Assembly (NCBI GenBank): GCA_964608655.1
Contig: CAZSQH010000001.1
Span: 1 to 34,836, forward strand
Origin: an uncultured Candidatus Saccharibacteria bacterium
Lineage (GTDB): Bacteria; Patescibacteriota; Minisyncoccia; Phycocordibacterales; UBA9973
Length of the DNA: 34,836 nucleotides
Reading direction: 5' to 3'
The position numbers were made by a program, and so were the translations under genes. Below, piece by piece: positions 1 to 32,636 of this stretch. Under the pieces are notes generated by a model. That model had not been told where the DNA came from. It searched no databases and saw nothing but the letters and a program-made list of their open reading frames with translations. Position 1 is the stretch's first letter. Each line of letters starts with the position of its first letter.

Positions 1-105
1 GGGTATTTTTCTCGTCGTAAGGACATAGAAAAATCTTTCGCTTCCCTGATGCAAGCAAAGCAGTTTGCTTGCTCACCTGCAAAGAAAAACATTTTGTTTT
101 TCTTG
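1..105 (-). repeat. tRNA-derived trailer element, copy A (follows tRNA-Pro; cut by window edge)
   Basis: Minus-sense sequence directly trailing tRNA-Pro. It shares with 797-897 a perfect 9-bp hairpin (51-59/64-72 versus 861-869/874-882) and the blocks gacatagaaaaatctttcg and ggtatttttctc. In minus sense it carries GGTG and CAGGG, identical to acceptor nt 4-7 and the T-stem 5' strand of tRNA-Pro. Confidence 0.6.
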
Positions 106-176
106 TCGGGGTGCAGGGAATCGAACCCTGTTCTCACGGTCCCAAACCGCGTATACTACCGGTGTACTACACCCCG
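106..176 (-). tRNA. tRNA-Pro (anticodon UGG)
   Basis: Hand-folded cloverleaf on the minus strand. Acceptor CGGGGTG/CACCCCG (C1-G72 as in bacterial tRNA-Pro), D stem GTAC/GTAT, anticodon stem CGCGG/CCGTG with loop TTTGGGA, T arm CAGGG-TTCGATT-CCCTG, discriminator A. No encoded CCA. Confidence 0.93.
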
Positions 177-221
177 AATAACCTTTTTATACTAACATAT
201 TTTTATATAAAAACAATTGTC

Positions 222-629
222 TCACCCTAAAACAATATTCTCTATCATTCTCACTCGAGCAAGCCTCTTGTGCATATCGAGGTACACCACAGCTAGGTCA
301 AACTGCCACTCGGTATTGCCTATCCTGTTGTGGATCAAATATGTGCCAACAGTTCTAGCCAAACGACGGATCTTCCAAGGGTGCATATTTTCCTCTGGTC
401 GGAAGGTCCCCTCTTCCTCTTTTCTATCATTTTCTACCAAATCTCGCGAAACAGATTTGACCTCGATAAAATAAAGCTTTCCTTCTTTGGTAGCTATAAT
501 ATCGATCTCGCCCCACTTCTTTGTATAATTGCGCTCCTTAATGAAAAATCCTTTCTTTTCAAGGTATTTGCAGGCTACATCCTCGCCCAACTCCCCTATT
601 TTTTGGCTTTGAGAAGTAAATTTTTTCAT
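222..629 (-). CDS. yraN: YraN/UPF0102 family endonuclease-like protein
   Basis: 135-aa ORF. GELGEDVACKYLEKKGF...WGEIDIIA...LYFIEVKS matches the UPF0102 (PD-(D/E)xK-like) pattern. Confidence 0.85.
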   Translation of the reverse strand: MKKFTSQSQKIGELGEDVACKYLEKKGFFIKERNYTKKWGEIDIIATKEGKLYFIEVKSVSRDLVENDRKEEEGTFRPEENMHPWKIRRLARTVGTYLIHNRIGNTEWQFDLAVVYLDMHKRLARVRMIENIVLG

Positions 630-646
630 CTCATTTAATTAAAGTG

Positions 647-658
647 TTTCACGTGAAA
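647..658. promoter_or_regulatory. perfect 12-bp palindrome TTTCACGTGAAA upstream of yraN
   Basis: Seen directly, 18-29 nt upstream of the yraN start (629, minus strand). Possible operator; function unknown. Confidence 0.3.
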
Positions 659-775
659 GACATAAAAGGACATAAAAAGTGTCTTTTATACCCATAACAC
701 ACATAGTTATCCACATTTTTGTTGATTTTTAAGGATTTTATGCCTCATATTTAAAAGACACAAAAAGACAAAACT

Positions 776-897
776 TGGTGCGGGATAGGAGAATCGGCTA
801 CCACGTAGCCAGGTATTTTTCTCCTCGCAAGCGACATAGAAAAATCTTTCGTTCTCCTACGCAAGCAAAGAAGTTTGCTTGCTATCCTCTTACTCTG
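776..897 (-). repeat. tRNA-derived trailer element, copy B (follows tRNA-Gly), ending in a second copy of the tRNA-Gly 3' end plus CCA
   Basis: 779-796 is identical to 898-915, the last 18 nt of tRNA-Gly, and is followed in minus sense by CCA (776-778). The interior is homologous to 1-105. In minus sense GGAT and AGGAG match acceptor nt 4-7 and the T-stem 5' strand of tRNA-Gly. There is an extra hairpin GGCTAC/GTAGCC at 796-810. Confidence 0.65.
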
Positions 898-968
898 TGC
901 GGGATAGGAGAATCGAACTCCTGTCTCATCCTTGGCAAGGACGTGTTCTACCACTAAACCAATCCCGC
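898..968 (-). tRNA. tRNA-Gly (anticodon GCC)
   Basis: Minus-strand cloverleaf. Acceptor GCGGGAT/ATCCCGC, anticodon loop TTGCCAA, T arm AGGAG-TTCGATT-CTCCT, discriminator A. It is followed by CAG, not CCA. Confidence 0.93.
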
Positions 969-1099: not shown

Positions 1100-1171
1100 G
1101 CACCCGTGGTGAAATGGATATCATTACTGTCTTCGGAACAGTCGTTTCAGGTTCGACTCCTGACGGGTGCA
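1100..1171 (+). tRNA. tRNA-Arg (anticodon UCG)
   Basis: Acceptor GCACCCG/CGGGTGC, D stem GTGA/TCAT, anticodon stem ACTGT/ACAGT with loop CTTCGGA, T arm TCAGG-TTCGACT-CCTGA. No encoded CCA. Confidence 0.93.
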
Positions 1172-1183
1172 CAAAAAAACTCT

Positions 1184-2692
1184 ATGGAAAAAATAAATAT
1201 AAAGGCAATTCCTCCTTTTGTTACACATGTAACAACAACCCTCCAAAAAGCGGGGTTTGAAGCGTATCTAGTGGGTGGGTGTGTTCGTGATCTTGTTATT
1301 GGAAAGAATCCAAACGATTGGGATGTAACAACGAATGCACACCCAGAAGAAGTACAGAAAATATTTTCCGACGTTAAAACAGTCTGTGAGAACAATTTTG
1401 GTACCGTAACTATTCTGAACATGCCCACAGAAGCAAAAGAGGGCGTTACACGGGAAACACCTAAACAAAATAATATTGTCCAAGTCACAACCTACCGGTC
1501 TGAAGGAACATATACCGATTTTAGACGTCCAGATACAGTTACTTATGAAACAAAATTAGAGAAAGACCTCGAGCGACGCGATTTTACTATAAATGCCCTT
1601 GCTTACGACCCTGTAAAAGACGATATAAAGGACATTTTTGGTGGTATAAAGGACATAAAGGACAAAATAGTACGTTGTGTCCTTTTGCCCTCTGATCGCT
1701 TCCAGGAGGACGCTTTGCGCATGCTCCGTGCTGTAAGGTTTTCCACACAGCTTGATTTTGGAATTGATGGAGAAACTCTTTCTGCTATCGCAACCAACTC
1801 CCATCTTTTAAAGGAAATATCTCCTGAACGTATTCGTGACGAGTTTATTAAAATCATTGAATCAAAAAACCCTGCAATTGGTCTAGGATTGCTTCAAAAA
1901 ACAGGACTTTTGATCTACATTATTCCTGAACTTCTTGAAGGGGTTGGATGTGAGCAAAAAGGAGCCCATATTTACGACGTTTTTGAACACAGTGTTCAAG
2001 CACTCCAACATTCAGCTGACAAAGAGTTTGATACTGATGTTCGTCTTGCGGCACTGTTTCATGACATTGGAAAACCTTCTACTCGCCGATATGACCGATC
2101 TAAAGATAAATACACGTTTTTTGGTCATGAAGTAGTAGGTGCCAGAATGACAAAAAAAATACTTGAACGACTCCATTTTTCACGTGAAACTGTTTCCCGT
2201 GTAACCCTTCTTGTGAGAAACCATATGTTTTTCTCTGATACTGAGCAGATCACCCTCTCTGCTGTTCGTCGTATTATTCGAAATGTTGGACCAGAAAATA
2301 TCTGGCTCCTCATGCAGGTGCGCGAATGTGACCGTGTAGGCATGAAAAAGGCGGAAGCGCCCTATCGATTACGAAAATACCACGCCATGATTGAAGAGGC
2401 GCTCCGGGATCCGATTTCTGTTGGTCAACTCGCTATCGATGGAGTCTACTTGATGGAGGAGTTGCACGTGAAACCAGGACCTCGTATGGGTTGGATACTT
2501 CACGCACTTCTTGAAGAAGTCTTAGAAGATCCATCACTAAACACTGTTGAAAAACTCTCGGAGCGAGCTCGTGATTTAGATGAACAAGACGATAGTACGC
2601 TTAAAACATTAGGGGAAAAGGGGAAGATGGCAAAAGAAGAAGCAAATGAGGGAGAACTAAAAGAGCTTCATAAAAAACACAGAATAAAATAA
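1184..2692 (+). CDS. cca: CCA-adding tRNA nucleotidyltransferase (poly(A) polymerase head domain + C-terminal HD domain)
   Basis: GGCVRDLVIGKNPNDWDVTT head motif, RDFTINA, and HDIGK HD motif. The start is moved to ATG 1184 because the ORF-track start at 1106 lies inside tRNA-Arg. Confidence 0.9.
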   Translation: MEKINIKAIPPFVTHVTTTLQKAGFEAYLVGGCVRDLVIGKNPNDWDVTTNAHPEEVQKIFSDVKTVCENNFGTVTILNMPTEAKEGVTRETPKQNNIVQVTTYRSEGTYTDFRRPDTVTYETKLEKDLERRDFTINALAYDPVKDDIKDIFGGIKDIKDKIVRCVLLPSDRFQEDALRMLRAVRFSTQLDFGIDGETLSAIATNSHLLKEISPERIRDEFIKIIESKNPAIGLGLLQKTGLLIYIIPELLEGVGCEQKGAHIYDVFEHSVQALQHSADKEFDTDVRLAALFHDIGKPSTRRYDRSKDKYTFFGHEVVGARMTKKILERLHFSRETVSRVTLLVRNHMFFSDTEQITLSAVRRIIRNVGPENIWLLMQVRECDRVGMKKAEAPYRLRKYHAMIEEALRDPISVGQLAIDGVYLMEELHVKPGPRMGWILHALLEEVLEDPSLNTVEKLSERARDLDEQDDSTLKTLGEKGKMAKEEANEGELKELHKKHRIK

Positions 2693-2723
2693 AAACCCCA
2701 CATAACAGTGGGATTGTTCTCTA

Positions 2724-3272
2724 TTACATATATTGGCACCAAAAGTTTATTGCGGTGCTATCTTTTTGAGCGATGTAAGAATCTGCAAGGTAAAAATTGA
2801 GTTCTCCTAAAAATTCCTGGAGGTACCTGTTGTACTTAGTAGGAATAACAATTTGTTGAAATTCAAAAAAGTATGCCTGGCGCTCAATTTCTTCAAACAG
2901 TGCATTAAACATTTGCTTTTGATGCTCTTCTGAGGAAGAAAGAAATTGTACAAACAGAAGATAGTGCTCTCCCAACGAATATTGGGCAATAGACATGATT
3001 TGTTTTAATTTTTCATTCCTTATTGCCGCAACAGGGGAGTACCCTGCCATAAATGAAAGAATTTCGGTTGTCTCAGGGTCGATAACAGCATAGAGCATGC
3101 GTATCTTTGCTGAATCAATCAACAGTTTCTTTACTGCAGGTAAAAGCACTGTTGTGTTTAAATTTTCACTTCTTCCTTTTTTTGAAACATACTGTCGCTG
3201 AAGCCCAAACTGAAACTGTATTACTCTATCAACATCGTCTTCGCAGAGTCTGACAATATCGTATTGGTACAT
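2724..3272 (-). CDS. hypothetical protein (182 aa)
   Basis: Clean ORF with a hairpin terminator-like element just downstream (about 2697-2715). No family recognised; GNAT-like is only a guess. Confidence 0.6.
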   Translation of the reverse strand: MYQYDIVRLCEDDVDRVIQFQFGLQRQYVSKKGRSENLNTTVLLPAVKKLLIDSAKIRMLYAVIDPETTEILSFMAGYSPVAAIRNEKLKQIMSIAQYSLGEHYLLFVQFLSSSEEHQKQMFNALFEEIERQAYFFEFQQIVIPTKYNRYLQEFLGELNFYLADSYIAQKDSTAINFWCQYM

Positions 3273-3319
3273 AGGCGTTGTTTTGCCGATTATATCTTTT
3301 TTTATAGCGGTGTGCTAGG

Positions 3320-3715
3320 ATGCTTGAAAATCTTTTGCGTATGCTCTATGCCAAAGAAAAACGTTCATTTTCTATAGGTATCATTGGTGCGGGAACTCTC
3401 TTGCTTCCAAGTCTCGAGGTTCGAGCTCCTATTATCATGACCGATGATCCTTGCATACTGTGTCCCATCGAAGAGGAAAGTGTTGCAACAAAACATCTTG
3501 AGGTTGTTGCGTTAACAAAAACCCGAGAGACGCTTTCTTTAATTTTTGTAATCAAAGAAAGCGATCTATTTTCGTTAGTACCACTGAATAAAGTTCCTTA
3601 TGATTTTGGAATATACACTCCAAAAATCATCAACAAAAAAATATTGCAATCAGTACCCTCTATCAGTCGCGGACCTCCAAAAGTCCGCTGTTTTATTTTT
3701 TTATTGCATTTTTGA
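3320..3715 (+). CDS. doubtful hypothetical ORF (131 aa)
   Basis: Only a long ORF. Its last ~15 codons run through an intrinsic terminator and the composition is unconvincing. The locus may instead be a short gene or an RNA. Confidence 0.25.
   Translation: MLENLLRMLYAKEKRSFSIGIIGAGTLLLPSLEVRAPIIMTDDPCILCPIEEESVATKHLEVVALTKTRETLSLIFVIKESDLFSLVPLNKVPYDFGIYTPKIINKKILQSVPSISRGPPKVRCFIFLLHF
3669..3702 (+). terminator. intrinsic terminator
   Basis: GCGGAC-ctccaaaa-GTCCGC followed by tgttttattttttt. Confidence 0.7.
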
Positions 3716-3747
3716 TAAAACAGGTTAGGATGTAAAAAACAATTGAT

Positions 3748-5186: not shown

Positions 5187-5498
5187 TTAGCGCTTGTTGG
5201 TTGGTAGTTTTTCGACAGTATCGACTCTTTTCAAAGAATCGTATCCATAAAAGATACGGTCTCCCTTTTTAAGCACTAGGGAGGAATCTTTTGTAAAGGC
5301 ACCTGAAATAGAAATATCAGCACCTTTCCTTCTGTTGGTATCAAGAAAAACGATGTCGTTTTTCATATCAACCTTTGTTACCCTCCCTGTATCAAAATAC
5401 AATTGAGGATGCTTACTACTTGAGTATGGATTTTCACACCCACTCAAAACAATTCCAATCAAAACAGCTACTCCGAGCTTCGAAACGTGTTTTTTCAT
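5187..5498 (-). CDS. lipoprotein, hypothetical (103 aa)
   Basis: Signal peptide with lipobox LSGC. Followed by the terminator at 5157-5180 (minus sense). Confidence 0.7.
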   Translation of the reverse strand: MKKHVSKLGVAVLIGIVLSGCENPYSSSKHPQLYFDTGRVTKVDMKNDIVFLDTNRRKGADISISGAFTKDSSLVLKKGDRIFYGYDSLKRVDTVEKLPTNKR

Positions 5499-5617
5499 TC
5501 GATTCTTTTTTTAAAATGAACAATTCGGACGAGCACTATAGCACGAAATAATTTTTTTGGTCAAAAAAAAAATCCCCTCACAAAAGTGAGGGGATGCTAC
5601 GGATTAAATGAAAAACG

Positions 5618-6262
5618 TTATGCAGGCTTTTCTTCTTTTTTTTCAGCCGAAGGTTTTGGATATTCCACCTTCATCCCACCATCAGCAAATATCGTCCATG
5701 TGGCTCCCGTGCCTTTCAGGTTTTCATGTACCTTCAGCAAGTCAACAGCAGGTTGCACAGGCTTTCTCCTTTCAGATGAAACCGAAGCAGATGGCTGATG
5801 ATTGTTCGGATACACATTTACAGTCGTCGGGGTAGGTGCAGGTGTCGCAGGTTGCTGGTTTTGTCTGTTGTGCAAATAAATTGCCAATAAAATCGCTCCA
5901 ACAATCAACAACAGGATCAGAAATACCAGAGGATCGCTGTAATGCCAGAATGTGCTTCCGCTTGATACTCCTTTATTTGAGGGAGTATCGTAGTGGTAGT
6001 GATTCTGATTAGCATTGATCGTCACATGGGTGTTGTGGCTGTTGGTCTGATTCACACTTGCCTGTGGCGAATAATTCCTCCTTCTTTCTCTTCCGATCTG
6101 AGGTTTTTCCTTTTGAACCGGTTCAACTGTAATATCATTCCCGATAATCGGCTCAGCTTTTACGATCAAGCTATCTCCGCAGGGGAGTTTCACTGTTTGC
6201 TGGGCAGAAACAAAGGTTGAGACTGAAAATACGATGGCGAGAAACAAAATAATTCTTTTCAT
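5618..6262 (-). CDS. secreted, C-terminally membrane-anchored hypothetical protein (214 aa)
   Basis: N-terminal signal peptide (..VSAQQ), a TM segment LVFLILLLIVGAILLAIYL, and a Pro/Thr-rich tail. A strong terminator lies at 5569-5595 (minus sense). Confidence 0.65.
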   Translation of the reverse strand: MKRIILFLAIVFSVSTFVSAQQTVKLPCGDSLIVKAEPIIGNDITVEPVQKEKPQIGRERRRNYSPQASVNQTNSHNTHVTINANQNHYHYDTPSNKGVSSGSTFWHYSDPLVFLILLLIVGAILLAIYLHNRQNQQPATPAPTPTTVNVYPNNHQPSASVSSERRKPVQPAVDLLKVHENLKGTGATWTIFADGGMKVEYPKPSAEKKEEKPA

Positions 6263-6413: not shown

Positions 6414-7100
6414 ATGAGATATGTTTTTCTTATATGCGCTGTGTTTCTCTTTTCTTGCAAACAAGAAAAAACACATAAAGTAGATAAAAACATTGCTTTT
6501 GGTATAGATGTCTCCCAGTATCAGGGAGTCATCGATTGGAAGACTGTTGCTTCTCAGAAAAAGCACCCTATCGAGTTTGTATTTATACGAGCGACAATGG
6601 GGAAAAATCGCAAGGACAAAAAATTCCAGTACAACTGGAAAGAAGCGAAAAAAAATGGTTTTATCGTTGGGGCGTATCACTATTACGATCCCAACGAACA
6701 TTCAATCACGCAAGCAAGAAATTATCTTGAGACTGCCACTGTACTGAAACCGGGAGATTTCATCCCTGTTGTTGATATTGAACAATTAGGTAAACGTCAA
6801 TCGGTCGCACGATTACGTCTCGGTTTGAGACGGTGGCTCACTGAAATTGAAAAAGTGTATGGGGTAAAACCCATCATTTATACAGGACATGCCTTTTTCA
6901 AAGACCACCTGCTCGATGAATTTAAAGAGTACCCCCTTTGGGTAGCTGCGTACTCACAAGAAAGAAGAGAGGATGCTATTGTGCAATCCTCAATAATTCA
7001 TCAGTTCAGTGAGAAAGTCACTGTTCCTGGTATCAGAGAAAACAAGGTGGATGGTAATGATATCCGCCGAGAGCATATACAAAAACTGCTCTTGAAATGA
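6414..7100 (+). CDS. glycoside hydrolase family 25 muramidase (lysozyme), lipoprotein-type signal
   Basis: GIDVSQYQGVIDW, FVFIRATMG and GAYHYY motifs typical of GH25. Lipobox LFSC. A terminator lies at 7108-7133. Confidence 0.85.
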   Translation: MRYVFLICAVFLFSCKQEKTHKVDKNIAFGIDVSQYQGVIDWKTVASQKKHPIEFVFIRATMGKNRKDKKFQYNWKEAKKNGFIVGAYHYYDPNEHSITQARNYLETATVLKPGDFIPVVDIEQLGKRQSVARLRLGLRRWLTEIEKVYGVKPIIYTGHAFFKDHLLDEFKEYPLWVAAYSQERREDAIVQSSIIHQFSEKVTVPGIRENKVDGNDIRREHIQKLLLK

Positions 7101-7200
7101 TTATTCGGACCCCTCAGTAGAGGGGTCTTTTTGTTTGACAAAATGAAAAATGCATGCTATTTTTAAAAACGAAATTTGTTTGTTCATCTAAAACATACGC

Positions 7201-7994: not shown

Positions 7995-8903
7995 TTATTT
8001 TTTGCTGTGAAACTTTTTATGAATCTCTCTGAGTTGGCGGTCGGTAACGTGCGTATAGACCTGTGTTGTCGCAATATTTGCGTGACCTAACATCATCTGA
8101 ACAGAACGAATATCGGCGCCGTTTGATAGTAGGTTTGTTGCAAACGAGTGACGAAGCACGTGAGGGGTAACTTTTTTTGATATCCCTGCTTTTGTTGCAT
8201 AGTGTCGTACAATTCGCTCAATAGAACGCGGAGTGAGTCGTGTGGTACTTTTACTATTTTTTGAAGCATTTACAAACAGCGGCTCTTCCATATCTTTTCG
8301 AGCAGTAAGATATTTTTTAATTGCATCTTTTGCATCAGAAGACAAAAAAACTACACGAATTTTTTCTCCTTTTCCTCTAATGGAAAACTCTTCTTTTGAT
8401 AGATCGAGGTCTCTGTTGAGAGAACACAATTCAGAAAGTCGAAGTCCTGTAGAAAAAAATAGTTCGAGCATTGCTTTGTCACGAAGCTGCTTTATATCGG
8501 TACCATCCGTTGCTTTGAGGAGGCGGTTCAGTTCATCAGTGGAAATAAGGTCGAGGTCTCGAGCACCGACTTTTGCAAGCTCAATTGTATCAGGAGAAAG
8601 TGCTGTAATATTTCTCTTTCGCAAGTATTTCAAAAAGGAGCGCAGCGCGATCATGTAGTAGTTCTGTGTCACTTTTTTCATGGTGGCACTTGTTTGTCCT
8701 TTTACTTTAATTCCTGGCGCTCGATTGAGCTTAAGACGAAATTCTCTGATGCGATCCTCTGTAATATCTGAAACCGCTTGTATGTTCATATCTTTTATAA
8801 AAGTATCGATATAGTGGCCGTAGTTTCTCACCGTTAGCTGGCTTCTTCCTTTTTCTATTTCGATATATTCAAGAAATTGACGCACCGCATCGAGAATCTG
8901 CAT
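7995..8903 (-). CDS. tyrosine site-specific recombinase, XerC/XerD family
   Basis: C-terminal HVLRHSFATNLL...GADIRSVQMMLGHANIATTQVYTHV (R-H-R-Y catalytic pattern). ATG 8903 is chosen because TATACT sits exactly 7 nt upstream. The ORF-track start is a TTG at 8927. Confidence 0.88.
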   Translation of the reverse strand: MQILDAVRQFLEYIEIEKGRSQLTVRNYGHYIDTFIKDMNIQAVSDITEDRIREFRLKLNRAPGIKVKGQTSATMKKVTQNYYMIALRSFLKYLRKRNITALSPDTIELAKVGARDLDLISTDELNRLLKATDGTDIKQLRDKAMLELFFSTGLRLSELCSLNRDLDLSKEEFSIRGKGEKIRVVFLSSDAKDAIKKYLTARKDMEEPLFVNASKNSKSTTRLTPRSIERIVRHYATKAGISKKVTPHVLRHSFATNLLSNGADIRSVQMMLGHANIATTQVYTHVTDRQLREIHKKFHSKK

Positions 8904-9008
8904 ATCAGAAAGTATATAACGTCGCAAAATATTTTTATACCATGGTACTTACGATAAGTATTGACGAAATGCGGTTTGGTATGTAGTATCAACAAAAATA
9001 CTTGTTAT

Positions 9009-24639: not shown

Positions 24640-27000
24640 GTGTATCCACGAAACACACATTTATATACGAGTACCATCTTCTTTATACTTTTTTTTGCCG
24701 TTCTCTTGTCTCCCTCCCTTCTCTTTGCTCAAACTGTTCGTTACTCAGGAACATGTATCGACAGCGTGGATAATGACAACGATGGGCGCCGAGACGCCCA
24801 AGATCCAACCTGCAACGAAAGCTATGGGTTCTGTGAGGTGATGACTGAAACATGCCGTCGACAAGTGAGCGCTATTGCTTCTTCAAATGCTCGTCAGCGA
24901 TTCAATCCTTCCGCGACTATTCAAGGAAGTGGTCGCACGTTTGGTGGGGTACAGTTCAGTGGAGTTGGAGGAGCGCTTGCGAGCTGTCTTGATGTGGGCG
25001 GATCGGTGGTACGAGGGATCAGCTCTGTCGCAAGCGACTTATTTAAAAATACGGCAAAAGAAAAACTGGTCGAAGAAGCAAAGAAATCTGCACTTTCTGC
25101 GGTAACTGAAGCAACAGGAGCACTTGAAAAAATACCCGTTGAAGATAGTAAATTAGCAGAAGAAACAAAAAAGGCAAATCAGCGAGAGAGTTGTCTCAAT
25201 GGGGTAGCATACGCCATCGCAAAAAGTCTTTTACAACAAGTAACCAATAAAACACTCAGTTGGGTAAACACCGGTTTTAATGGCAACCCACTCTATGTGC
25301 GAGATATCGATTCCTACTTAAAAACAGTATCTGATGAAAAAATAAATCAATATTTAAATCGTATCCCAAACCAAAATCCTATATTTGGAAATGCGATTCG
25401 CTCAATTGTGACTCAACAAGTAGGGGGTATTCAAGATGGACTCATAAGTAAAACAATGAACACCCCTCAGGCACAAGCGTATGAAAATTTTCAAAATAAT
25501 TTTACCAATGGCGGGTGGCGTGCATTTCTTGACCCTCGCAATGATGCAGTCGGCTCTCTACTTGAAACAGCAGAAGATATTGGGGATGATGTTGGAACAG
25601 TCCAACAAAACGTAATTGACCAGCTCAATCGCAACAGCAACTTTTTAAACCTCACTCGCTGTGTTGAGTATGAAGACGTTGCAGAAGCACAAGCATACCT
25701 AGATAGGTGTCAGGGAGTAACAGACGATGGTGTAGGAAATGAAAACTATGAGTACGCTGGGTGTGGTCACACACAACTGCAAATCATGCAACAACGCATC
25801 AACAATCCTGCTTGTTTAAAAACAGAAACAGTAACCCCAGGATCAGTCATTGCGGCGCAAACCACTGCTGTAACCACCTCCGCAATACGACAACTTGAAC
25901 AAGCAGATGAAATAAACGAAGTGCTTGGATCATTTTTTGATCAAATGCTCAACCGACTCATTTCCGATGGACTCTCTTCTGTTCGAGGAAAAAGTTCTAT
26001 TCCTTTTAGTTACAGCGGGGCAGGAGCGAATGTCGTCATTGGAACAAATGGGCAACCGATTGGCGCTGGGAGTTCTGCGGTGATTGGAGCGCTGGGCTAT
26101 CGAAGTGCTCGTGGTGGCTATGAAGTGACTGAATTTGACATGACTCGCCCTCAAGAGCTTCGAGCAATACTCCAAACACAATATGATTATCTCAGTCGAT
26201 TAAAAGATGCTCGCCAAGCAGTTGATCGTATTGTGCCTACACTTGGTGCACTTGATTATTGTGTTCCGGGACCAAACCCAACATGGCCCGATGGATTTGC
26301 TGGTAATGTGGATATATTTTTTGAAAACCTACAGGAAGTAACAAAAGAATCAAGCTTGGGAAGAAAACTGTTGCAAAGCATTCCTATCATTGGTGCCTTG
26401 TTTGGAGGAGAGCCAAAACCAGATACCATCGCGGTGTCAGACCTTCTCCTGTATGACAAAGCAAGTGGTGCTGGGCAGAACGTAGGAGATAGAGCATTTC
26501 ACAGAAAACGAAGAGAGGGATTTGAGCTTGCAGAAAAAATACAAAACGCATATGACAACCTAGTAACAGACTACAATAATCACTACACTCCTCAAAAAAT
26601 TGTTGATGCATTTGTTCGGGTTGATAGCGATCCAGTATTTGCAAAAGCAACAATTGAAGATATCCTTGCGGAAACAAGCAATCTTCCTGGATACGGACTC
26701 GGTATTGTAGAAATAGAAAATGAATACAACCCAGCAGAAATCGGCGTGATCAATGCGATTAACGAACTTGAAGATATTCGACAAGAAGCAAATGAAATCG
26801 TAAGTATTGCAAAAGCACGCTACATACGAGAGCAAGAACTTGCCGGAACCCCTGTAAATCTAGAGTGTATCAATAGTGCGTATGTTATCGATACCACTCC
26901 TATTATCCCTGTTGCTCGACAAGAAGGAGATGCAGTGTCGCCATTTTATGAACGATCAAACAACGCAACCATTAATTTCTATAACACGCTTCGCCTATAG
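24640..27000 (+). CDS. large secreted protein, hypothetical (786 aa)
   Basis: Signal peptide ..LLFAQT. Cys-rich N-terminus with the Asp-rich motif DSVDNDNDGRRDAQDP. GTG start, so the start is uncertain. Confidence 0.8.
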   Translation: MYPRNTHLYTSTIFFILFFAVLLSPSLLFAQTVRYSGTCIDSVDNDNDGRRDAQDPTCNESYGFCEVMTETCRRQVSAIASSNARQRFNPSATIQGSGRTFGGVQFSGVGGALASCLDVGGSVVRGISSVASDLFKNTAKEKLVEEAKKSALSAVTEATGALEKIPVEDSKLAEETKKANQRESCLNGVAYAIAKSLLQQVTNKTLSWVNTGFNGNPLYVRDIDSYLKTVSDEKINQYLNRIPNQNPIFGNAIRSIVTQQVGGIQDGLISKTMNTPQAQAYENFQNNFTNGGWRAFLDPRNDAVGSLLETAEDIGDDVGTVQQNVIDQLNRNSNFLNLTRCVEYEDVAEAQAYLDRCQGVTDDGVGNENYEYAGCGHTQLQIMQQRINNPACLKTETVTPGSVIAAQTTAVTTSAIRQLEQADEINEVLGSFFDQMLNRLISDGLSSVRGKSSIPFSYSGAGANVVIGTNGQPIGAGSSAVIGALGYRSARGGYEVTEFDMTRPQELRAILQTQYDYLSRLKDARQAVDRIVPTLGALDYCVPGPNPTWPDGFAGNVDIFFENLQEVTKESSLGRKLLQSIPIIGALFGGEPKPDTIAVSDLLLYDKASGAGQNVGDRAFHRKRREGFELAEKIQNAYDNLVTDYNNHYTPQKIVDAFVRVDSDPVFAKATIEDILAETSNLPGYGLGIVEIENEYNPAEIGVINAINELEDIRQEANEIVSIAKARYIREQELAGTPVNLECINSAYVIDTTPIIPVARQEGDAVSPFYERSNNATINFYNTLRL

Positions 27001-27003
27001 CTT

Positions 27004-27945
27004 ATGAAGAAAATCCTTAAACTAATTTTGCTTATCGTCATCATTGTTGCCATTGTTTTGGTGGTATGGTGGCTCGTCGGAAGAAATACCGCTGTTAAAA
27101 ATGGAACCTCTCCTGTTTCATTTCGTTCATTTATTGGATTAGGAGATGGTAATCCTCTCCCTGGACCTGATAGTGGAGGGCTCACTCCTGATACTACTGG
27201 CTCTCAAGGTACTGCTACTACCCCTGATGGAAATGATGACGGTATAGACGATGACTTTTCTGATGAAAATGACGTACTCGATAGAGACTATGCTGATGTA
27301 AGCGTATTTACTGAGGGACCACTCACACCAGCAGATTCAGATGGGGGAGGAGCTGGTGGTGGAAGCACGGGAGGTGGTGGAACAAGTGGTGGTGGAGGAG
27401 CTGGTGGTGGAAGCACGGGAGGTGGTGGAACAAGTGGTGGTGGAGGAGCTGGTGGTGGAAGCACGGGAGGTGGTGGAACAAGTGGTGGTGGTACCCCACC
27501 TGGAGATATTCCTCCTGTATTTCCCATATGCTCTGATGCTGATGTTACGATCACCTTCACTCCTGATGAAATCAGAAGACTCAATGCTCTTCAGACACGC
27601 TTTTATGCTATTGCTGTTGATCTTCGAACTGACACCGATGTTGATACTGAACTTGTAAACTATGATGTGTTTAAAGCAAAAGCAGACACCATCGCAGAAT
27701 TCTATAACTATTGCCAATCAAAAGCTCCCCTCATCACAGCGGCACCTTACAAGACCCGTGTGGGAACTCCCTATTGGTATGAGCCAGGAAAAGATCAAAC
27801 CGGCTATCTTAACAATATGCGTGTGTATTCAACTTCTAGCACTTTTATCAACAATGCCCTCAACAACTATCGTATCGTGAACCCTTACGATCAATCACGC
27901 ACAAAAGCGGTGCTTGAACATTTGTTTAAAGTAAATCTTTGGTAA
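27004..27945 (+). CDS. membrane-anchored protein with a Gly-rich tandem-repeat linker (313 aa)
   Basis: TM helix ILKLILLIVIIVAIVLVVWWLV. An acidic stretch, then a 3 x 16-aa Gly/Ser/Thr repeat, then a ~150-aa C-terminal domain. Confidence 0.8.
   Translation: MKKILKLILLIVIIVAIVLVVWWLVGRNTAVKNGTSPVSFRSFIGLGDGNPLPGPDSGGLTPDTTGSQGTATTPDGNDDGIDDDFSDENDVLDRDYADVSVFTEGPLTPADSDGGGAGGGSTGGGGTSGGGGAGGGSTGGGGTSGGGGAGGGSTGGGGTSGGGTPPGDIPPVFPICSDADVTITFTPDEIRRLNALQTRFYAIAVDLRTDTDVDTELVNYDVFKAKADTIAEFYNYCQSKAPLITAAPYKTRVGTPYWYEPGKDQTGYLNNMRVYSTSSTFINNALNNYRIVNPYDQSRTKAVLEHLFKVNLW
27346..27489. repeat. three perfect tandem copies of a 48-bp unit (in-frame, coding)
   Basis: ggaggagctggtggtggaagcacgggaggtggtggaacaagtggtggt occurs at 27346-27393, 27394-27441 and 27442-27489. 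Confidence 0.95.
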
Positions 27946-28005
27946 GTATTGTTTTCCTCTTTAATATTGCTTAAATATAAGCATAGTTACTGGTATACTG
28001 TGTAC

Positions 28006-31000
28006 GTGCACGCACGCTTTTTTCCCTTTATAAAAAAGTTACAGAAGGTGTTTTTTCGTACAACAAAAACATTGGTGCTTTCTCTTGTCCTTATTTTTTC
28101 TTTTCTCTCAAGTGTCGCTCCCGCGTTCGCTCAAGGAGTTGACCAGTGTCCTGGTGTTGTAGGAATACAAACATCAACCCCTTGCGAAAGTAAGTGGGAT
28201 GAGTATAAAACCCTTTTCACAAAAGGAGATACAGAAAAACCAATCTTCGGGTATGGGTGGTTATTTGATAACGAAACAAACAAAACGAAAGTGACTGGCA
28301 TTCGCTTCTCTTTTATAGCAAAGTTTGATTTAACAAAACACACTAAAAAATGGTACTGGGACCATGTCGTTTCTTATAACGATGATAATGATAATGGTTT
28401 CATAATCCGTATTTGTTCTGTAGGAACAGATGGTCAAATAACTACTTCTTGCTCATACACCCCTGTGAGTTATTTACGAGGACAAAATGCAGCAACCGTA
28501 GAAATTGCTCGAGCTATCAATCAAGATGTTTTTACAACCGCTATTTATAGAAATATTTACGACGCCCCACCAGGAGATTTATTTCTTGGTGTTTTACAAA
28601 ATGACTACCGTAACAAATTTGGTGTAAATGTTGCTTTAGCAAATACTTCTCTTAGCCCAGCTTTAACTCCAGGAAATCGATACCAGGCAGACTTTTGGTA
28701 CTGTCCAGGAAATAGTGAGACAAGAAACGATGCTACAGATCCAAACACAACAGAAAACGGCCCCATATCTCCAAATATTCCAACAAATGATGAGCATATT
28801 AAAGATTTTGGTCCTTTATGTAAAGGAATAAGTGATCATCGTGCTTATTTTAGAATAGGAGAACCAAAAACATTTATTTATCCTGCCACAATAGAAGATG
28901 CAACCAATGACACTGGGGTCACCGCTGCTGCAACAAATGAAGACAATTATTCTGATCGCGATGGGAATGATTCCATCCTTCCAAAATGTCACATCCTCAA
29001 TGGATGGGGACCAGGAACAGGATCGTTTGTCGGGTGCCTTGCAGTTCTAGGATACTACATGATTTACCGACCTATTCAGTGGTTTGCTGGTTTAATGGGT
29101 AATATCTTTGACTTTTTCCTTGGATACTCTATTAGCGATGAGGCCTACCGGATGGAGTTTGCAGTAAAAGGGTGGCAGCTTATCCGTGATATTTCAAATA
29201 TTTTCTTTATCATTATTTTGGTATGGACTGGATTTGCAACTGTTTTCAGTATAGGAAACATCTCTATGAAGCAGGTGGTACCTGCACTCATCGTCAATGC
29301 GCTCATTATTAACTTTAGCTTATTTGCGACTCGAGTTGCGATTGATATTTCAAACATATTTGCTCGTGTTATCTACAACTCCATGAGTGTAGTAGACAAC
29401 AACAAAAACACTCTTTCTGGACCAGGGGGATACAAATCACTTTCTGCAAAAATTGTATCGTCATTTAATCCACAAAACATGTTTAAAACTCAGTATATTT
29501 CTCCTGAGCAAGAACTCGTCCAAAACTATGATCCCAAAAATGATGATGATGCCACTGCTGGAGGAGGAGCATATGACGGAGGAACATTTAACTCACAATC
29601 AGCAGGAACAGATCTTGAGAATGCAAAAAAACTAAGACGTACTGATAGTGCGTACGCAGGATACTTTATCATTGTGACGCTTCTTGCGGGGACAATATTG
29701 TTTGGTGTTGCAAAAATGTTTTGGAAAACTGCATTTCTTTTCCTTGGAAGAGTGATGGGGCTCTACATTACTATGATTTTTGCCCCATTTGCATTTCTTA
29801 CAAGAAAAAATATGCCCCTCATAGGAGGCATCCCCCAAATATCGTGGAGTTCATGGATAAAAGATCTCACAAACTATTGTTTGATGGCACCGGTGTTTAT
29901 GTTGTTCTTGTACGTTGTCTATCTCTTTGTAAACAGTGAATTTGTTCAAGTATTTGCAAATAAAGAAACTGATTTTTTTGAAGCGGTCATTGCCATTGCA
30001 GTCCCGATGTTGATTGTGTATACCCTTATTAATTTTGGGGTAAATATTGCAAAAAGTTTTTCTGGAACAGTTGGGCAAATGATTCAAAATAAAGTAGAAG
30101 GTATCACAGGAGGAATTGGTGGTATTGCAGGAACTGCGGTTGGAGTAGGTGCGGGAGCGCTTGCGTTTGCTGGAAGAAATGTACTCGGAAGAGGAATGCG
30201 TTCGTTTGGAAAAAGTAAAACTGGAAGAATGATTAAAGATAAGGATGGAAACGACGTCGAAGAAACGAGAGAAATGAGTTGGGCAGCAAATGCTGATAGT
30301 AGCAAGTGGGCACGCTTCATGAACTACGCTACCAACAAGAGCCAGACAGGGTCATGGGATGTGCGCAACTTGGGAGTAAAAATCGGAAAGAAAGAATACA
30401 CCGCCGGAGGAACATTTAACAAAGGATTTGGATTGCTCAGTCAAGAAAAAATCTCAGATAAGCTCAGTGACGACCTTGGTGTTGGAAAAGATAAGGCGCT
30501 CGGAAAAGGAGATAAACCTGGTGGTATTTTGAAACTTGACGAAGAAAATAAGAAAGCGCGAGCAGAAAAACTCAAAAATAAAATCAAGTATGATCATCTC
30601 TCTGATGAAGATGCTCAAAAAATATGGGCGGAAATTCGAAGAAAGAAAATTGAACAATATGGTGAAGCTGAATGGGAAAAACATGTTGGTTCAACTGACG
30701 CAATGAAGTTCCATAAAGAAAAGTTTGAAACTGCAGAAAAAGAATTAAAAGAAGCTAAAGATGCTTTGAAGAAAGCGCAAGAAGAAGGAAAAACATCTCT
30801 CGCTGCAGACCAGTTGAAAGTAAAACGAGCAGAAGAAAATGTAGAAAAAATAAAGAAAGAAAAAGAACAAGCAGAAAAACAACTTATTGCCGATATAAAA
30901 CTAGGAAAACATGGAGATCGTAAAAAAGAAGCGATTGAAGCTGCTAAAAAAGCAGAAGAAGAACGTCTTGATAAGTATGGAAACATAAAAAACAAGAGTG

Positions 31001-31647
31001 GTCTCGAGGGGGCAATGCGTGGGGAATATGCAGAAGATCTCCGTAAGAACTCTCTCTTTATGAAGGATGGAAAACCTCGTTATTGGCCAGGAGTCCTCGG
31101 CACTGGTATTGCTGCAACACTTGCAATGGTTTCTCCGTTAGGCGCAGTCATTGGTGCGGCAATGTTTGCAAACATGACCAAAGGGATGCTGAGAAACCTT
31201 GTGGGAATAAACACTGGTGCAACAAAGAAAATAATTGATGAAGCGCGAAAGAGTCAGGGTCGAGGAAGTCAGGAGGTGCAACTTACTGAAAAAATGGAGA
31301 TGCTCAGTAATAAACTCTGTGAAGCGGTAAATAGCCAACTTGGCACCAGTTTCAAAAAGTTTGAAGAAATGACCTTGCAACAAATAGAAGATGGTGTGAT
31401 TGGAAAAACTACCGATCTTCAAAAAGAAATTGCGGATCTTAAGTTTAATAAACCGGCTGGTTGGGAAAAAGAAGTGAGAAAACGCGAGGTGCACATAAGA
31501 ACTCTTGAAAATGCAGTTGAAGATTACGAACGTCACCAGAACAACTTAGAACGTATACAAGCAAACAAAAAAAAGGCCTCGGAGGATAAAGGAAAACCAA
31601 AAGACAGCGGTGGAAAAGATGGTGGAGATAATAAGGGAACCAAATAA
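28006..31647 (+). CDS. giant polytopic membrane protein, candidate VirB6/TrbL-like channel component with a K/E-rich coiled-coil tail
   Basis: Signal-like N-terminus (..VAPAFAQG), a ~300-aa outside domain, a block of many hydrophobic helices (aa ~360-720 of the ORF), then a Lys/Glu-rich C-terminal third. The ORF-track start is TTG 27949. GTG 28006 is preferred (TATACT 6 nt upstream) and GTG 28048 is also possible. The VirB6-like call is inferred from topology and operon context only. Confidence 0.7.
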   Translation: MHARFFPFIKKLQKVFFRTTKTLVLSLVLIFSFLSSVAPAFAQGVDQCPGVVGIQTSTPCESKWDEYKTLFTKGDTEKPIFGYGWLFDNETNKTKVTGIRFSFIAKFDLTKHTKKWYWDHVVSYNDDNDNGFIIRICSVGTDGQITTSCSYTPVSYLRGQNAATVEIARAINQDVFTTAIYRNIYDAPPGDLFLGVLQNDYRNKFGVNVALANTSLSPALTPGNRYQADFWYCPGNSETRNDATDPNTTENGPISPNIPTNDEHIKDFGPLCKGISDHRAYFRIGEPKTFIYPATIEDATNDTGVTAAATNEDNYSDRDGNDSILPKCHILNGWGPGTGSFVGCLAVLGYYMIYRPIQWFAGLMGNIFDFFLGYSISDEAYRMEFAVKGWQLIRDISNIFFIIILVWTGFATVFSIGNISMKQVVPALIVNALIINFSLFATRVAIDISNIFARVIYNSMSVVDNNKNTLSGPGGYKSLSAKIVSSFNPQNMFKTQYISPEQELVQNYDPKNDDDATAGGGAYDGGTFNSQSAGTDLENAKKLRRTDSAYAGYFIIVTLLAGTILFGVAKMFWKTAFLFLGRVMGLYITMIFAPFAFLTRKNMPLIGGIPQISWSSWIKDLTNYCLMAPVFMLFLYVVYLFVNSEFVQVFANKETDFFEAVIAIAVPMLIVYTLINFGVNIAKSFSGTVGQMIQNKVEGITGGIGGIAGTAVGVGAGALAFAGRNVLGRGMRSFGKSKTGRMIKDKDGNDVEETREMSWAANADSSKWARFMNYATNKSQTGSWDVRNLGVKIGKKEYTAGGTFNKGFGLLSQEKISDKLSDDLGVGKDKALGKGDKPGGILKLDEENKKARAEKLKNKIKYDHLSDEDAQKIWAEIRRKKIEQYGEAEWEKHVGSTDAMKFHKEKFETAEKELKEAKDALKKAQEEGKTSLAADQLKVKRAEENVEKIKKEKEQAEKQLIADIKLGKHGDRKKEAIEAAKKAEEERLDKYGNIKNKSGLEGAMRGEYAEDLRKNSLFMKDGKPRYWPGVLGTGIAATLAMVSPLGAVIGAAMFANMTKGMLRNLVGINTGATKKIIDEARKSQGRGSQEVQLTEKMEMLSNKLCEAVNSQLGTSFKKFEEMTLQQIEDGVIGKTTDLQKEIADLKFNKPAGWEKEVRKREVHIRTLENAVEDYERHQNNLERIQANKKKASEDKGKPKDSGGKDGGDNKGTK

Positions 31648-31650
31648 TAT

Positions 31651-32187
31651 ATGGATACACTCACAACACAACAAAATACTATCAATGAAGCGTTCAATAA
31701 TATCCCCCCTGAAGTAGAGGAATTTATGTGGAGTGATGCCTACACTATTATTGTTGACGCAATAAAAGAAACGCTCTCGCTCACCGATGCCCAGCGCGAT
31801 ATGGTTCGACAACTAAGCTATGACCTTCTTCTTAAACTAAAAACAGTTCCCCAAATAACAGAAGAGTTCCTCAACGCTGGTATTTCTCAAGAAACAACTG
31901 CAAAAATTATCTACCTTATTGATAGTGAAATCACCACTCGCGCAGTAAATATCGCAGAGTTTTATGCGCCCCACGAAGACGACATCGAACTTGAAGAAAA
32001 AGCAGTCCCTGCTTCACCATCAGAAAAACCAGCTCCCGATGTATTTACTTCACTTGAACAAAGACTTAAAAACACAACGGTGGTTGCGCCAATTGCAAGA
32101 GCGACACCCTTAACACAAATTTCTGTTAAAGAAGTACCTCAAACCCCTCCACGAATTGACCCCTATCGAGAACTTCCTGAAAAATAG
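31651..32187 (+). CDS. acidic hypothetical protein (178 aa)
   Basis: Clean ORF, 3 nt after the upstream stop. Confidence 0.7.
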   Translation: MDTLTTQQNTINEAFNNIPPEVEEFMWSDAYTIIVDAIKETLSLTDAQRDMVRQLSYDLLLKLKTVPQITEEFLNAGISQETTAKIIYLIDSEITTRAVNIAEFYAPHEDDIELEEKAVPASPSEKPAPDVFTSLEQRLKNTTVVAPIARATPLTQISVKEVPQTPPRIDPYRELPEK

Positions 32188-32237
32188 CACACCACAAAAA
32201 GTACAGAGAGGAACACTTCTGAGGTATACTAGAGTGT

Positions 32238-32633
32238 ATGCAATTTAAAGTCCCTCAATTTATCGATATTGAAGATAAAGTATTTGGACCACTCACGTTT
32301 AAACAGTTTGCGTACCTTGCGGGAGGGGGAGGACTTATATATCTTTCATTTAAAATACTTCCTTTATTTTTAGCACTTCCTGTGGCGGGTGTTTGTGGCG
32401 CACTCGCACTAGCGCTCGCATTTTTGAAATATAATGAGAAACCATTTGTTCACACTGTTGAAGCGTTCATAAAGTTTTATACAAAATCAAGATTGTATCT
32501 ATGGCGCAAAGAACATCCCACAAAACAATCTTCTCTTCCAATAGAAGATGGAAAAAGTATTCGCTCTACACTTACCGAAAGCAAGCTAAAAACGCTCTCG
32601 TGGAGTTTGGATGTAATCGACCCTAAAAAATAA
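32238..32633 (+). CDS. PrgI-family (VirB3-like) small membrane protein
   Basis: MQFKVPQFIDIEDKVFGPLTFKQFAYLAGGGG.. followed by two TM helices, the typical PrgI-family N-terminus, sitting just before a VirB4-type ATPase. TATACT sits 7 nt before the ATG. Confidence 0.75.
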   Translation: MQFKVPQFIDIEDKVFGPLTFKQFAYLAGGGGLIYLSFKILPLFLALPVAGVCGALALALAFLKYNEKPFVHTVEAFIKFYTKSRLYLWRKEHPTKQSSLPIEDGKSIRSTLTESKLKTLSWSLDVIDPKK

Positions 32634-32636
32634 TCC

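Follow-up and report, generated by a model that had tools for sequence, protein, structure and literature searches.

Several described systems share features with the element reported here. The tRNA-like mascRNA/MEN-beta RNA (RF01684) is likewise a mimic of the acceptor and T stems at the 3′ side of a longer transcript with no working anticodon, and by analogy both it and the element are plausible substrates of RNase P, RNase Z and the CCA-adding enzyme. However, mascRNA is eukaryotic, has a real T-loop and is not tied to a neighbouring cognate tRNA, whereas the T-loop of the element holds a two-hairpin insertion and the RF01684 model matches true tRNAs only. The tRNA-like domains of tmRNA and of Y RNA (YrlA) are bacterial and also combine acceptor and T-arm mimicry with another structure that replaces the rest of the tRNA. 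These domains occur once per genome, resemble a single tRNA type and retain the T-loop, while the mimicry of the element changes with the adjacent tRNA.

Likenesses are also found among DNA elements. The attL/attR duplications and CIMEs left by integrative elements have in common with the element a tandem arrangement, a patchy presence and, clearly so in some copies only, a directly repeated tRNA 3′ end that begins in the T-loop, but the present element has no integrase or cargo, has a covarying body of ~100 nt, lies after the tRNA's own hairpin and contains strands matching the tRNA 5′ half. The ends of IS200/IS605 elements and REP/RAYT sequences carry conserved hairpins with short target-complementary flanks, a general likeness and not a demonstrated homology. 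In contrast to these, the element has no TnpA, RAYT or TnpB that could be found, its distance to the target is variable, and its guide-like segments total 9–12 nt on both sides of a hairpin, compared with 4–5 nt. The tRNA-derived SINEs are non-coding repeat families of tRNA descent as well, but they are eukaryotic retroelements with Pol III promoters and are spread genome-wide, whereas the element occurs only beside the tRNA that it resembles and no reverse transcriptase was seen. To our knowledge, no bacterial system has been described with structured elements that trail tRNA genes, copy their acceptor and T stems and are re-tuned for different tRNAs, and a literature search returned no description of such elements.

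Trailing elements in the window and related contigs

The window, by which we mean the whole stretch of 34,836 nucleotides analysed, contains three tRNA genes, all lacking an encoded CCA (Table 1). The first-pass annotation described homologous trailers behind tRNA-Gly(GCC) and tRNA-Pro(UGG), an exact 18-nt repeat of the tRNA-Gly 3′ end and a CCA at 776–778, all of which were confirmed in the sequence. The repeat (779–796 = 898–915, tRNA-Gly positions 56–73) reaches 24 nt at 92% when its flanks are included. The hairpin and sequence blocks said to be shared by the trailers were also recovered: GCAAGCAAA-NNNN-TTTGCTTGC is common to both (51–72 and 861–882; chance expectation 0.06 matches per window), as are CGAAAGATTTTTCTATGTC (22–40 and 833–851; 0.03 matches per window) and GAGAAAAATACC. 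The Gly and Pro elements have identical SL1 hairpins and core blocks, and differ exactly in their tRNA-specific segments. Complete orthologues of the Pro element, which is truncated by the window edge, are present at L019, L046 and L047. The hairpin that precedes it is part of the tRNA locus rather than of the element, since trailer-less relatives have a comparable hairpin 3′ of tRNA-Pro, as at L017.

Table 1. Positions of the elements, their parts and neighbouring genes in the window
Feature	Position	Strand	Basis
Pro-cognate element, ending at the window edge after ...GAGAAAAATACCC	1–80	−	Covariance-model match, 75.9 bits; 3′ part beyond window
Pro element SL2	starting at 34	−	
Pro element CGAAAG	35–40	−	
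Pro element P3 5′ strand CAGGG(AA)	42–48	−	
Pro element SL1	51–72	−	
Pro element P1 5′ strand GGTG	74–77	−	
Spacer with A/T-rich hairpin 3′ of tRNA-Pro	81–105 (arms 82–91 and 95–104)	−	Inverted repeat
tRNA-Pro(UGG), parent of second element	106–176	−	ARAGORN and Rfam
yraN (UPF0102/NERD nuclease-like), between the two elements	222–629	−	Pfam
Gly-cognate element, complete	776–890	−	Repeats, fold, covariance-model match (126 bits), covariation
CCA after the Gly element copy, judged coincidental	776–778	−	
Gly element copy of tRNA C56–A73	779–796	−	
Gly element hairpin SL3	796–810	−	
Gly element ACCT	811–814	−	
Gly element hairpin SL2	815–845	−	
Gly element CGAAAG	846–851	−	
Gly element P3 5′ strand (T)AGGAG(AA)	852–859	−	
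Gly element hairpin SL1	861–882	−	
Gly element P1 5′ strand GGAT	884–887	−	
Spacer between tRNA-Gly and element, 7 nt (CAGAGTA)	891–897	−	
tRNA-Gly(GCC), parent of first element	898–968	−	ARAGORN; Rfam RF00005, 69.1 bits
tRNA-Arg(UCG)	1100–1171	+	ARAGORN and Rfam
Tyrosine recombinase, Xer-like	7995–8927	−	

The same element was found at nine loci in the window and related contigs, a small sample gathered via synteny and two pattern scans. It always lies downstream of a tRNA gene and on the same strand, at a spacing of 7–30 nt. In addition to the window Gly-GCC and Pro-UGG copies, the loci are L019/L020 (Pro), L025 (Arg, with two tandem units), L036 (Gly, the orthologous copy in the closest relative), L039–L043 (Gly-UCC), L046 (Pro) and L047–L050 (Pro). 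A search for trailers behind other tRNAs in relatives, as had been proposed, yielded four tRNA species (Gly-GCC, Gly-UCC, Pro-UGG and Arg-UCG), with 0–2 copies per about 10–35 kb and none away from a tRNA. Of the 14 matches returned by a metagenome pattern scan, L025 alone was real. Two weak covariance-model matches (L037, 1088–1203; L046, 7755–7850) were rejected as ordinary terminator hairpins. Judged from these sequences, in some Patescibacteria a conserved, folded element of ~115 nt trails a tRNA gene, with two closing helices that copy the acceptor and T stems of that tRNA.

The element is patchily distributed and is missing from close relatives with identical tRNAs, and it is therefore dispensable. 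The window tRNA-Gly is 100% identical in L017 and L021, both of which have no trailer, and the tRNA-Pro is identical in L019, L017 and L047; L039 and L017 form a clean filled/empty pair. Four lineages in which YraN is only 73–83% identical all have their Pro-type element in the spacer from Pro to Gly(UCC), and this shared placement points to long-term retention under selection. The window and L025 have core blocks of 100% identity despite widely differing tRNA-Arg genes. The synteny of yraN is kept in relatives with and without elements; the gene is context only, with no functional link to the elements shown, and a protein search found no record of the exact YraN of the window.

Fold, covariation and correspondence to the cognate tRNA

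In the first-pass annotation, each trailer was proposed to consist of a partial acceptor stem, a single hairpin where a tRNA has its D and anticodon arms, and a T stem closing an expanded loop, and the minimum-free-energy fold supports this arrangement. In the 5′ to 3′ direction, the element starts with the P1 strand, equal to acceptor positions about 3–7, followed by SL1, a 9-bp hairpin with the loop CUKC that replaces the D and anticodon arms. Next comes the P3 strand, which equals the 5′ strand of the T stem with AA and CG added, and then an invariant CGAAAG. SL2 has an invariant 8-bp base and a variable yet paired tip, and is followed by ACCU and SL3, before a copy of tRNA positions 56–73 closes P3 and P1. 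A hammerhead ribozyme was considered for the three-way junction and rejected, as the core fails by eye and no Rfam ribozyme matches over it.

The three hairpins carry many compensatory base changes. When the sequences were aligned to the model, pairing held in 97.6% of cells and double changes were seen at 11 pairs; the observed covariation was reached in 0 of 500 shuffles, and slid controls were 38–59% paired. RNAalifold, run on an independent MAFFT alignment, recovered SL1, P3, SL2 and SL3 with 14 compensated pairs. SL1 occurs in the variants GCAAGCAAA, GCACGCAAA, GCGAATGAA, GCAAGTGAA and GGACATGAA, each of them fully paired. Four G-U pairs and no A-C pairs were found in SL1 and SL3, which favours folding of the tRNA-sense strand. 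P3 forms in all members (−7.8 to −12.2 kcal/mol), among them those whose 3′ copy no longer follows the tRNA closely. On structure, the elements qualify as tRNA-like minihelix mimics, in which an acceptor-like helix able to stack on a T-like helix ends in the discriminator base: for L019, L046 and L047 the minimum-free-energy fold contains both P1 and P3, and for the window, L025 and L039 copies P3 alone; P1 has only 3–6 bp in most copies.

The differences between the trailers were said to follow their own tRNAs, and this proved to be so at 32 of 36 tracked positions in four cognate pairs (binomial p about 1e-15). Non-cognate pairings match at 1–5 of 9 positions, except between two near-identical Gly tRNAs. 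In the Gly element, GGAT (884–887) and AGGAG (854–858) equal tRNA-Gly positions 4–7 and the T-stem 5′ strand, and in the Pro element the same parts of tRNA-Pro are equalled by GGTG (74–77) and CAGGG (44–48). At L046, A57 is present both in tRNA-Pro and in the element copy, and a change of CGAAAG to TGAAAG preserves that pair. For window Gly and for L025 Arg the 3′ repeat agrees with the tRNA at 18 of 18 positions; L019 has 16 of 18, and the repeat is degenerate (11–13 of 18) in L039, L046 and L047. Among Pro-type elements the T-like 5′ strand, CAGGG, never varies, but its partner in the 3′ copy drifts, and this 5′ strand may instead pair with the real tRNA. The direct repeat at L047 begins at C56 and continues for 13 nt after the tRNA has ended, an extension that looks like a DNA-level duplication.

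The predicted copy of the tRNA-Pro 3′ end is present in L019/L020, where the complete Pro trailer ends in ...GTAGCCGAccCCCTGCACCCCGA, an inexact copy (16/18) that bears out the prediction in part. The encoded NCCA end did not hold: of the seven complete ends only one has it, and the L036 orthologue reads GCA-CAA-AGTTTTG where the window reads GCA-CCA-AGTTTTG, and further copies have CAC or TCG. On this comparison, the CCA in the window is a one-base coincidence and not a family feature. The primer-binding-site reading, already judged unlikely when it was raised, rested on this non-conserved CCA and is rejected. The nearby CCA-adding enzyme gene had been offered as a link; its neighbourhood is conserved synteny whether trailers are present or absent, and the link was dropped.

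Database searches gave no known family. No Rfam 15 model matched over the elements at E-values up to 10 (window) or up to 1 (L019, L025 and L048), the tRNA models (RF00005 and ARAGORN) scored only the true tRNAs and nothing over 776–890 or 1–80, and ARAGORN detected no tmRNA. Pattern scans of viral contigs returned nothing, or an unrelated hairpin in a phage coding region, and blastn with the L019 element gave no phage match, its one plasmid match being 27 nt long and due to chance. A genome-contig scan with the 19-mer CGAAAGATTTTTCTATGTC gave six chance matches in unrelated taxa, none with the hairpin or second block, and a protein search with six-frame translations of the trailers, aimed at ORFs called there spuriously, matched nothing.

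Possible origins and roles of the elements

Among the options in the first-pass annotation was a family of small RNAs that derive from a tRNA and stay with that parent gene, and the family and its association with the tRNA are supported, with production of an RNA as the conditional part. We tentatively regard the elements as a structured family of ~115 nt, most likely RNAs in the tRNA sense, each mimicking the top half of the upstream tRNA, although this model could easily prove wrong. Such an RNA would be transcribed as part of the upstream tRNA transcript or by read-through, and its stacked P1/P3 helix might act on enzymes that read tRNA minihelices (candidates are RNase P, RNase Z and the CCA-adding enzyme), whether as their substrate, as a decoy or as a punctuation signal. 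Because the true T-loop (T54, ψ55) is replaced, it is uncertain whether RNase P or the CCA-adding enzyme would recognise it. A new cognate version could arise if an existing element were duplicated beside another tRNA and joined to a copy of the 3′ end of that tRNA, with P1 and P3 then re-matched to it by compensatory change. There is no terminator between tRNA and element in the window Gly, L025 Arg and L047 copies, supporting a context of co-transcription, and at L047 a hairpin with a T-run is placed after the element; against an RNA, a good intrinsic terminator separates the two in L039, L046 and the distant L038 type. The trailers do not themselves read as intrinsic terminators of the tRNA operon: the scan found none on the minus strand over them, SL3 scoring on the opposite strand only. 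The patchy presence, the short P1, the drift opposite CAGGG in Pro-type copies, the overrun of the L047 repeat and the small number of loci also count against the RNA model.

A serious rival, although a somewhat unlikely one, is that the element is mobile DNA, a miniature and non-autonomous form inserting next to its cognate tRNA gene. The stretches on either side of SL1 would be guides that pair with the 3′ strands of the T stem and acceptor in the tRNA gene, insertion would duplicate target DNA from C56 onward, and the enzyme would be encoded elsewhere; it might be a recombinase or an HUH transposase that binds hairpins, with the hairpins and invariant blocks as its binding sites. Mobility would account for the varying presence among close relatives with identical tRNAs, including the L039/L017 pair, the tandem array of two units in L025 and the long L047 repeat. 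It also fits the near-identity of the window Gly and Pro copies outside the tRNA-matching segments, the conservation of the invariant blocks across genera, which exceeds that of the tRNAs themselves, the guide-like 5′ strands that remain tRNA-like where the 3′ copy drifts, and contig breaks inside the element in three cases (window, L025 and L036), which suggest repeated sequence. However, no transposase or element-specific recombinase was found in the window or at any locus (the window ORFs scanned include no IS200/IS605-type Y1 HUH transposase), and the Xer-like gene is syntenic in element-free relatives. The variable spacing leaves no fixed insertion point, there are no terminal inverted repeats or consistent target duplication (at most 7 nt in L039), copies are few and all beside a tRNA, and inheritance of the Pro-type elements seems to have been vertical, with compensatory changes gathering at a single locus. 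A MITE was rejected separately: no terminal inverted repeats bound either trailer, and the flanking repeat ranges from about 7 to >31 nt. Hairpins with flanking target-complementary segments are present, as in IS200/IS605 or REP-type elements, and guides that choose the target in this manner would explain the tracking of the tRNA. The corresponding idea, which we consider doubtful, is a programmable element in which the strands flanking SL1 guide pairing to the 3′ strand of one tRNA or tRNA gene, as precursor RNA or single-stranded DNA, and so choose the tRNA to which the element attaches or on which it acts. If true, the element would be a novel type of miniature mobile element directed to tRNA genes by base pairing, or a cis-acting RNA that swaps with the tRNA 5′ half, and could be retargeted from Pro to Gly to Arg by changing about 9–12 guide nucleotides.

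It is improbable that the trailers are scars or cis-mobilisable remnants of integrative elements that use the tRNA 3′ end as attB, with the two 3′ copies as attL and attR and the ~100 nt between them as leftover element arms. The direct repeats do start at C56 in the T-loop, which is said to be the classic sublocation for tRNA-targeting integrases; the Gly and Arg copies have repeats of 18–20 nt, the L025 units resemble site-specific accretion, and a tyrosine recombinase lies 7 kb away. That recombinase is, however, the syntenic Xer-type gene of relatives without elements, and no cargo-bearing version was found in viral, phage and plasmid searches. The same ~100-nt body with covarying hairpins is conserved at four tRNAs, where random deletion remnants would differ, and the internal strands matching tRNA 5′ halves would have no role. 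The hairpin adjoining the tRNA is present at the empty site L017 as well as at L039, so the element was not inserted inside the tRNA. A simple att scar, one of the options originally raised, is unlikely because relatives with identical tRNAs have no element and because the element follows the tRNA's own spacer or terminator hairpin. Decaying tandem tRNA duplicates, that is, pseudogenes with no function of their own, would explain the tRNA-derived acceptor strands, T-stem strands and 3′ ends, and the degeneracy of several 3′ copies (L039, L046 and L047). But independent decay of Gly, Pro and Arg genes could not give the same SL1, SL2 and SL3 at the same positions, and the invariant blocks and 11–14 compensated pairs show selection on structure; given the shared modules and the covariation, this origin appears very unlikely.

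Patescibacteria (CPR) have tiny genomes, and a conserved 115-nt non-coding fold beside tRNA genes is therefore unlikely to be idle. If the elements are RNAs, they would be natural mimics of the tRNA top half, and in these organisms, which cannot be cultured alone, they could serve to probe or to modulate tRNA-targeting toxins or the enzymes RNase P, RNase Z and CCA-adding enzyme. If they are mobile DNA, they would represent a new way of choosing tRNA-gene targets by base pairing. Either way, all CPR genomes and metatranscriptomes can now be searched for the family by its defined motif and covariance model.

Members of the family and their loci

The source organism belongs to the Patescibacteria and is of the Paceibacteria type. 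Scans of genome, viral and metagenome collections with 19-mers gave a single true match, L025 (L-numbers denote related contigs compared with the window); two of the collection scans used one and the same 19-mer. All further copies were found on contigs with close homologues of the adjacent CCA-adding enzyme and YraN, screened with two models: an nhmmer profile and a covariance model trained on three complete copies. The nine element-bearing loci found in this way, a small sample, comprise Gly-GCC elements in the window and L036, Pro-UGG elements in the window, L019/L020, L046 and L047-L050, two tandem Arg-UCG units of 134 nt each in L025, and a Gly-UCC element in L039-L043. All copies lie 3' of a tRNA in the same orientation, and neither model detected a tRNA-distant copy in the ~250 kb of sequence screened. 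A search of the window trailer against Rfam returned no family match at E-values up to 10, and the element likewise matched nothing in phage or plasmid records.

Features of the window and related contigs
Contig	Feature	Position	Strand
Window	Pro trailer, cut off by window end	105-1	minus
Window	tRNA-Pro(UGG)	176-106	minus
Window	yraN	629-222	minus
Window	Gly trailer, 122 nt	897-776	minus
Window	tRNA-Gly(GCC)	968-898	minus
Window	tRNA-Arg(UCG)	1100-1171	plus (opposite to both trailers)
Window	CCA-adding enzyme gene	1184-2692	plus (opposite to both trailers)
Window	Xer-type tyrosine recombinase (Phage_integrase and SAM-like N-terminal domains)	7995-8927	minus
L007	~220-230-aa gene	1189-1863	
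L008	~220-230-aa gene	5290-5988	
L037	~220-230-aa gene	2351-3016	
L038	~220-230-aa gene	3025-3720	

Assembly breaks fall within the element in three independent assemblies (position 1 of the window, of L025 and of L036), and the L019 contig ends 4 nt past a tRNA. These contig ends hint at further copies of the element, or of its blocks, in other parts of these genomes.

Predicted fold and match to the cognate tRNA

The first-pass annotation had described each trailer as a partial acceptor stem, a hairpin and a T-like stem, and this architecture was recovered by the predicted fold. The window has exactly two copies each of the 9-bp hairpin and the 19-nt block common to both trailers, against chance expectations of 0.06 and 0.03. 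The 9-bp stem of the first hairpin, SL1 (loop CTKC), exists in five sequence versions, each of them completely paired. In L039, L046 and L047 there are compensated changes in the 8-bp base of SL2; the SL2 tip differs between copies in sequence and length yet keeps its pairing, and SL3 is near-invariant. In the model-fitted alignment 97.6% of cells are paired, with double changes at 11 pairs; none of 500 shuffles reached these values, and slid controls were 38-59% paired. RNAalifold, applied to an independent MAFFT alignment, recovered the closing helix P3 along with all three hairpins (SL1, SL2 and SL3), and 14 of the pairs are compensated. Among the hairpin pairs, four are G-U and none is A-C, a pattern in favour of a fold in the tRNA-sense strand. 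On the plus strand, window SL3 (796-810) and the AGGTATTTTT after it score as terminator-like, so the element could also stop antisense transcription.

The proposed tracking of the cognate tRNA was confirmed: the 4 nt before SL1 agree with positions 4-7 of the adjacent tRNA's acceptor 5' strand, and the 5 nt after SL1 with its T-stem 5' strand, the total being 32 matches in 36 positions (p about 1e-15). When elements are compared with non-cognate tRNAs, 1-5 of 9 positions match, the exception being the two near-identical Gly tRNAs. L039 serves as a check: the T stem of its tRNA-Gly(UCC) is AAGAG/CTCTT, not AGGAG/CTCCT, and the element there has AAGAG. In L046, tRNA-Pro has A57, as does the 3' copy (of tRNA positions 56-73) in the element, and a change of the conserved block CGAAAG to TGAAAG keeps that base pair.

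The 18-nt repeat reported in the window is exact (779-796 = 898-915). The 3' copy equals the tRNA at 18/18 positions in the Gly element of the window and in the Arg elements of L025, at 16/18 in L019, at 13/18 in L047 and at 11/18 in both L039 and L046; P3 is still predicted to form in all copies, including the diverged ones. The expected tRNA-Pro 3' copy at the end of the Pro trailer is present in L019/L020 (GTAGCCGAccCCCTGCACCCCGA), but is followed by CAC instead of the expected CCA. TCG directly follows the L025 Arg copies. In the closest relative, L036, whose YraN is 94% identical, the orthologous Gly element is followed by CAAAGTTTTG versus CCAAGTTTTG in the window. By these comparisons the window CCA is a single-base coincidence, so the encoded NCCA end falls, as does the primer-binding-site reading that rested on it, which was dropped.

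A more distant trailer of the same design lies 3' of tRNA-Gly(UCC) in L038 (1582-1752). There, a terminator hairpin precedes a domain of ~110 nt with a strong predicted fold (z = -6), which is closed by GGAAGGGAG/CTCCCTTATCC, the closing strand being complementary to the tRNA 3' strand, and which terminates in a 14-nt copy of C56-C69. GTGGTRGCCGA is common to this trailer and the main family.

Filled and empty loci in a variable neighbourhood

The tRNA-Gly(GCC) of L017 and of L021 does not differ from that of the window, but neither contig has the trailer. In L017 and L039, an identical tRNA-Pro is separated from tRNA-Gly(UCC) by 39 nt, compared to ~180 nt at filled Pro loci. tRNA-Gly(UCC) itself gives a clean pair, filled in L039 and empty in L017, and the L039 element lies beyond the terminator hairpin of the tRNA. 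Together with tRNA-to-element spacers of 7-30 nt, these comparisons indicate that the element is not inserted within the tRNA, and that the 3' tRNA copy is part of the element. The L047 repeat runs 13 nt past the tRNA end (CATTTGAAAGGTT) and looks like a DNA duplication. Pro-type copies sit in the same intergenic spacer in four lineages (YraN identity 73-83%), which suggests that they were inherited vertically and lost in the L017/L039 branch. The window Gly and Pro copies are identical in SL1 and the core blocks and differ in the tRNA-specific segments, which suggests a recent within-genome duplication followed by re-matching to the tRNA.

Upstream of yraN, non-coding positions 640-775 (...AAAAATGTGGATAACTATGTGTGT..GGGTATAAAAGACAC...CACGTGAAACAC, with a perfect DnaA box TTATCCACA at 707-715, plus strand) are near-unchanged in L019 and L036, can still be recognised in L008, L017 and L021, and may have a regulatory or origin-related role. 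The CCA-adding enzyme encoded by L007 is 100% identical to that of the window, and the tRNA-Arg is near-identical; left of this tRNA, L007 has an HTH gene, and its tRNA-Gly(GCC) and yraN allele differ from those of the window. Similarity (window ~1090-1100, L007 1920-2002) ends exactly at the tRNA-Arg 5' end, which looks like a recombination breakpoint. Between the CCA-enzyme/tRNA-Arg region and tRNA-Gly(GCC), several relatives have a ~220-230-aa gene, with a weak HTH_23 match in L007, a faint one in L008 and no match in L037 and L038. The window, L017 and L046 do not have this gene, which is a variable insertion in this tRNA-rich hotspot. In L047 only, a Fic-domain gene and an HTH_17 gene (6496-7189) adjoin the CCA-adding enzyme gene, and may form a toxin-antitoxin-like pair in this neighbourhood. 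Elsewhere in the window, successive large ORFs of 786, 313, 1232, 178 and 215 aa without Pfam match (24640-33284, plus strand), with a PrgI-family protein among them (32238-32633), may constitute a type IV secretion-like or conjugation-like cluster.

Competing readings of the element

We tentatively favour the reading that the element is a tRNA-linked structured RNA mimicking the top half of its cognate tRNA, based on the observed fold and its covariation, the strand bias and orientation of the copies, and their retention at orthologous loci. The main rival, a hairpin-guided miniature mobile DNA element, draws support from the patchy distribution among relatives, from the tandem units and the duplication in L047, and from the contig ends falling within the element; however, no transposase was found in the window or at the other loci, the distance from the tRNA is not constant and there are no fixed ends, and we regard this reading as less likely. 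An integrase att scar is a poor fit and quite improbable. The window recombinase, which the first-pass annotation did not mention, has a similar counterpart at the equivalent place in L008 and L046 and is probably a housekeeping enzyme; its synteny, and that of the adjacent CCA-adding enzyme gene, is conserved in element-free relatives too. Decay of tRNA duplicates also fits poorly, and is slightly less probable still.

As a structured RNA, the element would be transcribed and processed, and might serve as a decoy or as punctuation. Our literature search found no published description of such an element. Among the nearest known systems, the mimicry of tRNA-like structures (such as mascRNA and the tRNA-like domain of tmRNA) does not follow a neighbouring tRNA, and tRNA att duplications show no change of mimicry with the neighbouring tRNA. 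In contrast, the mimicry of this element changes to follow the tRNA beside it.
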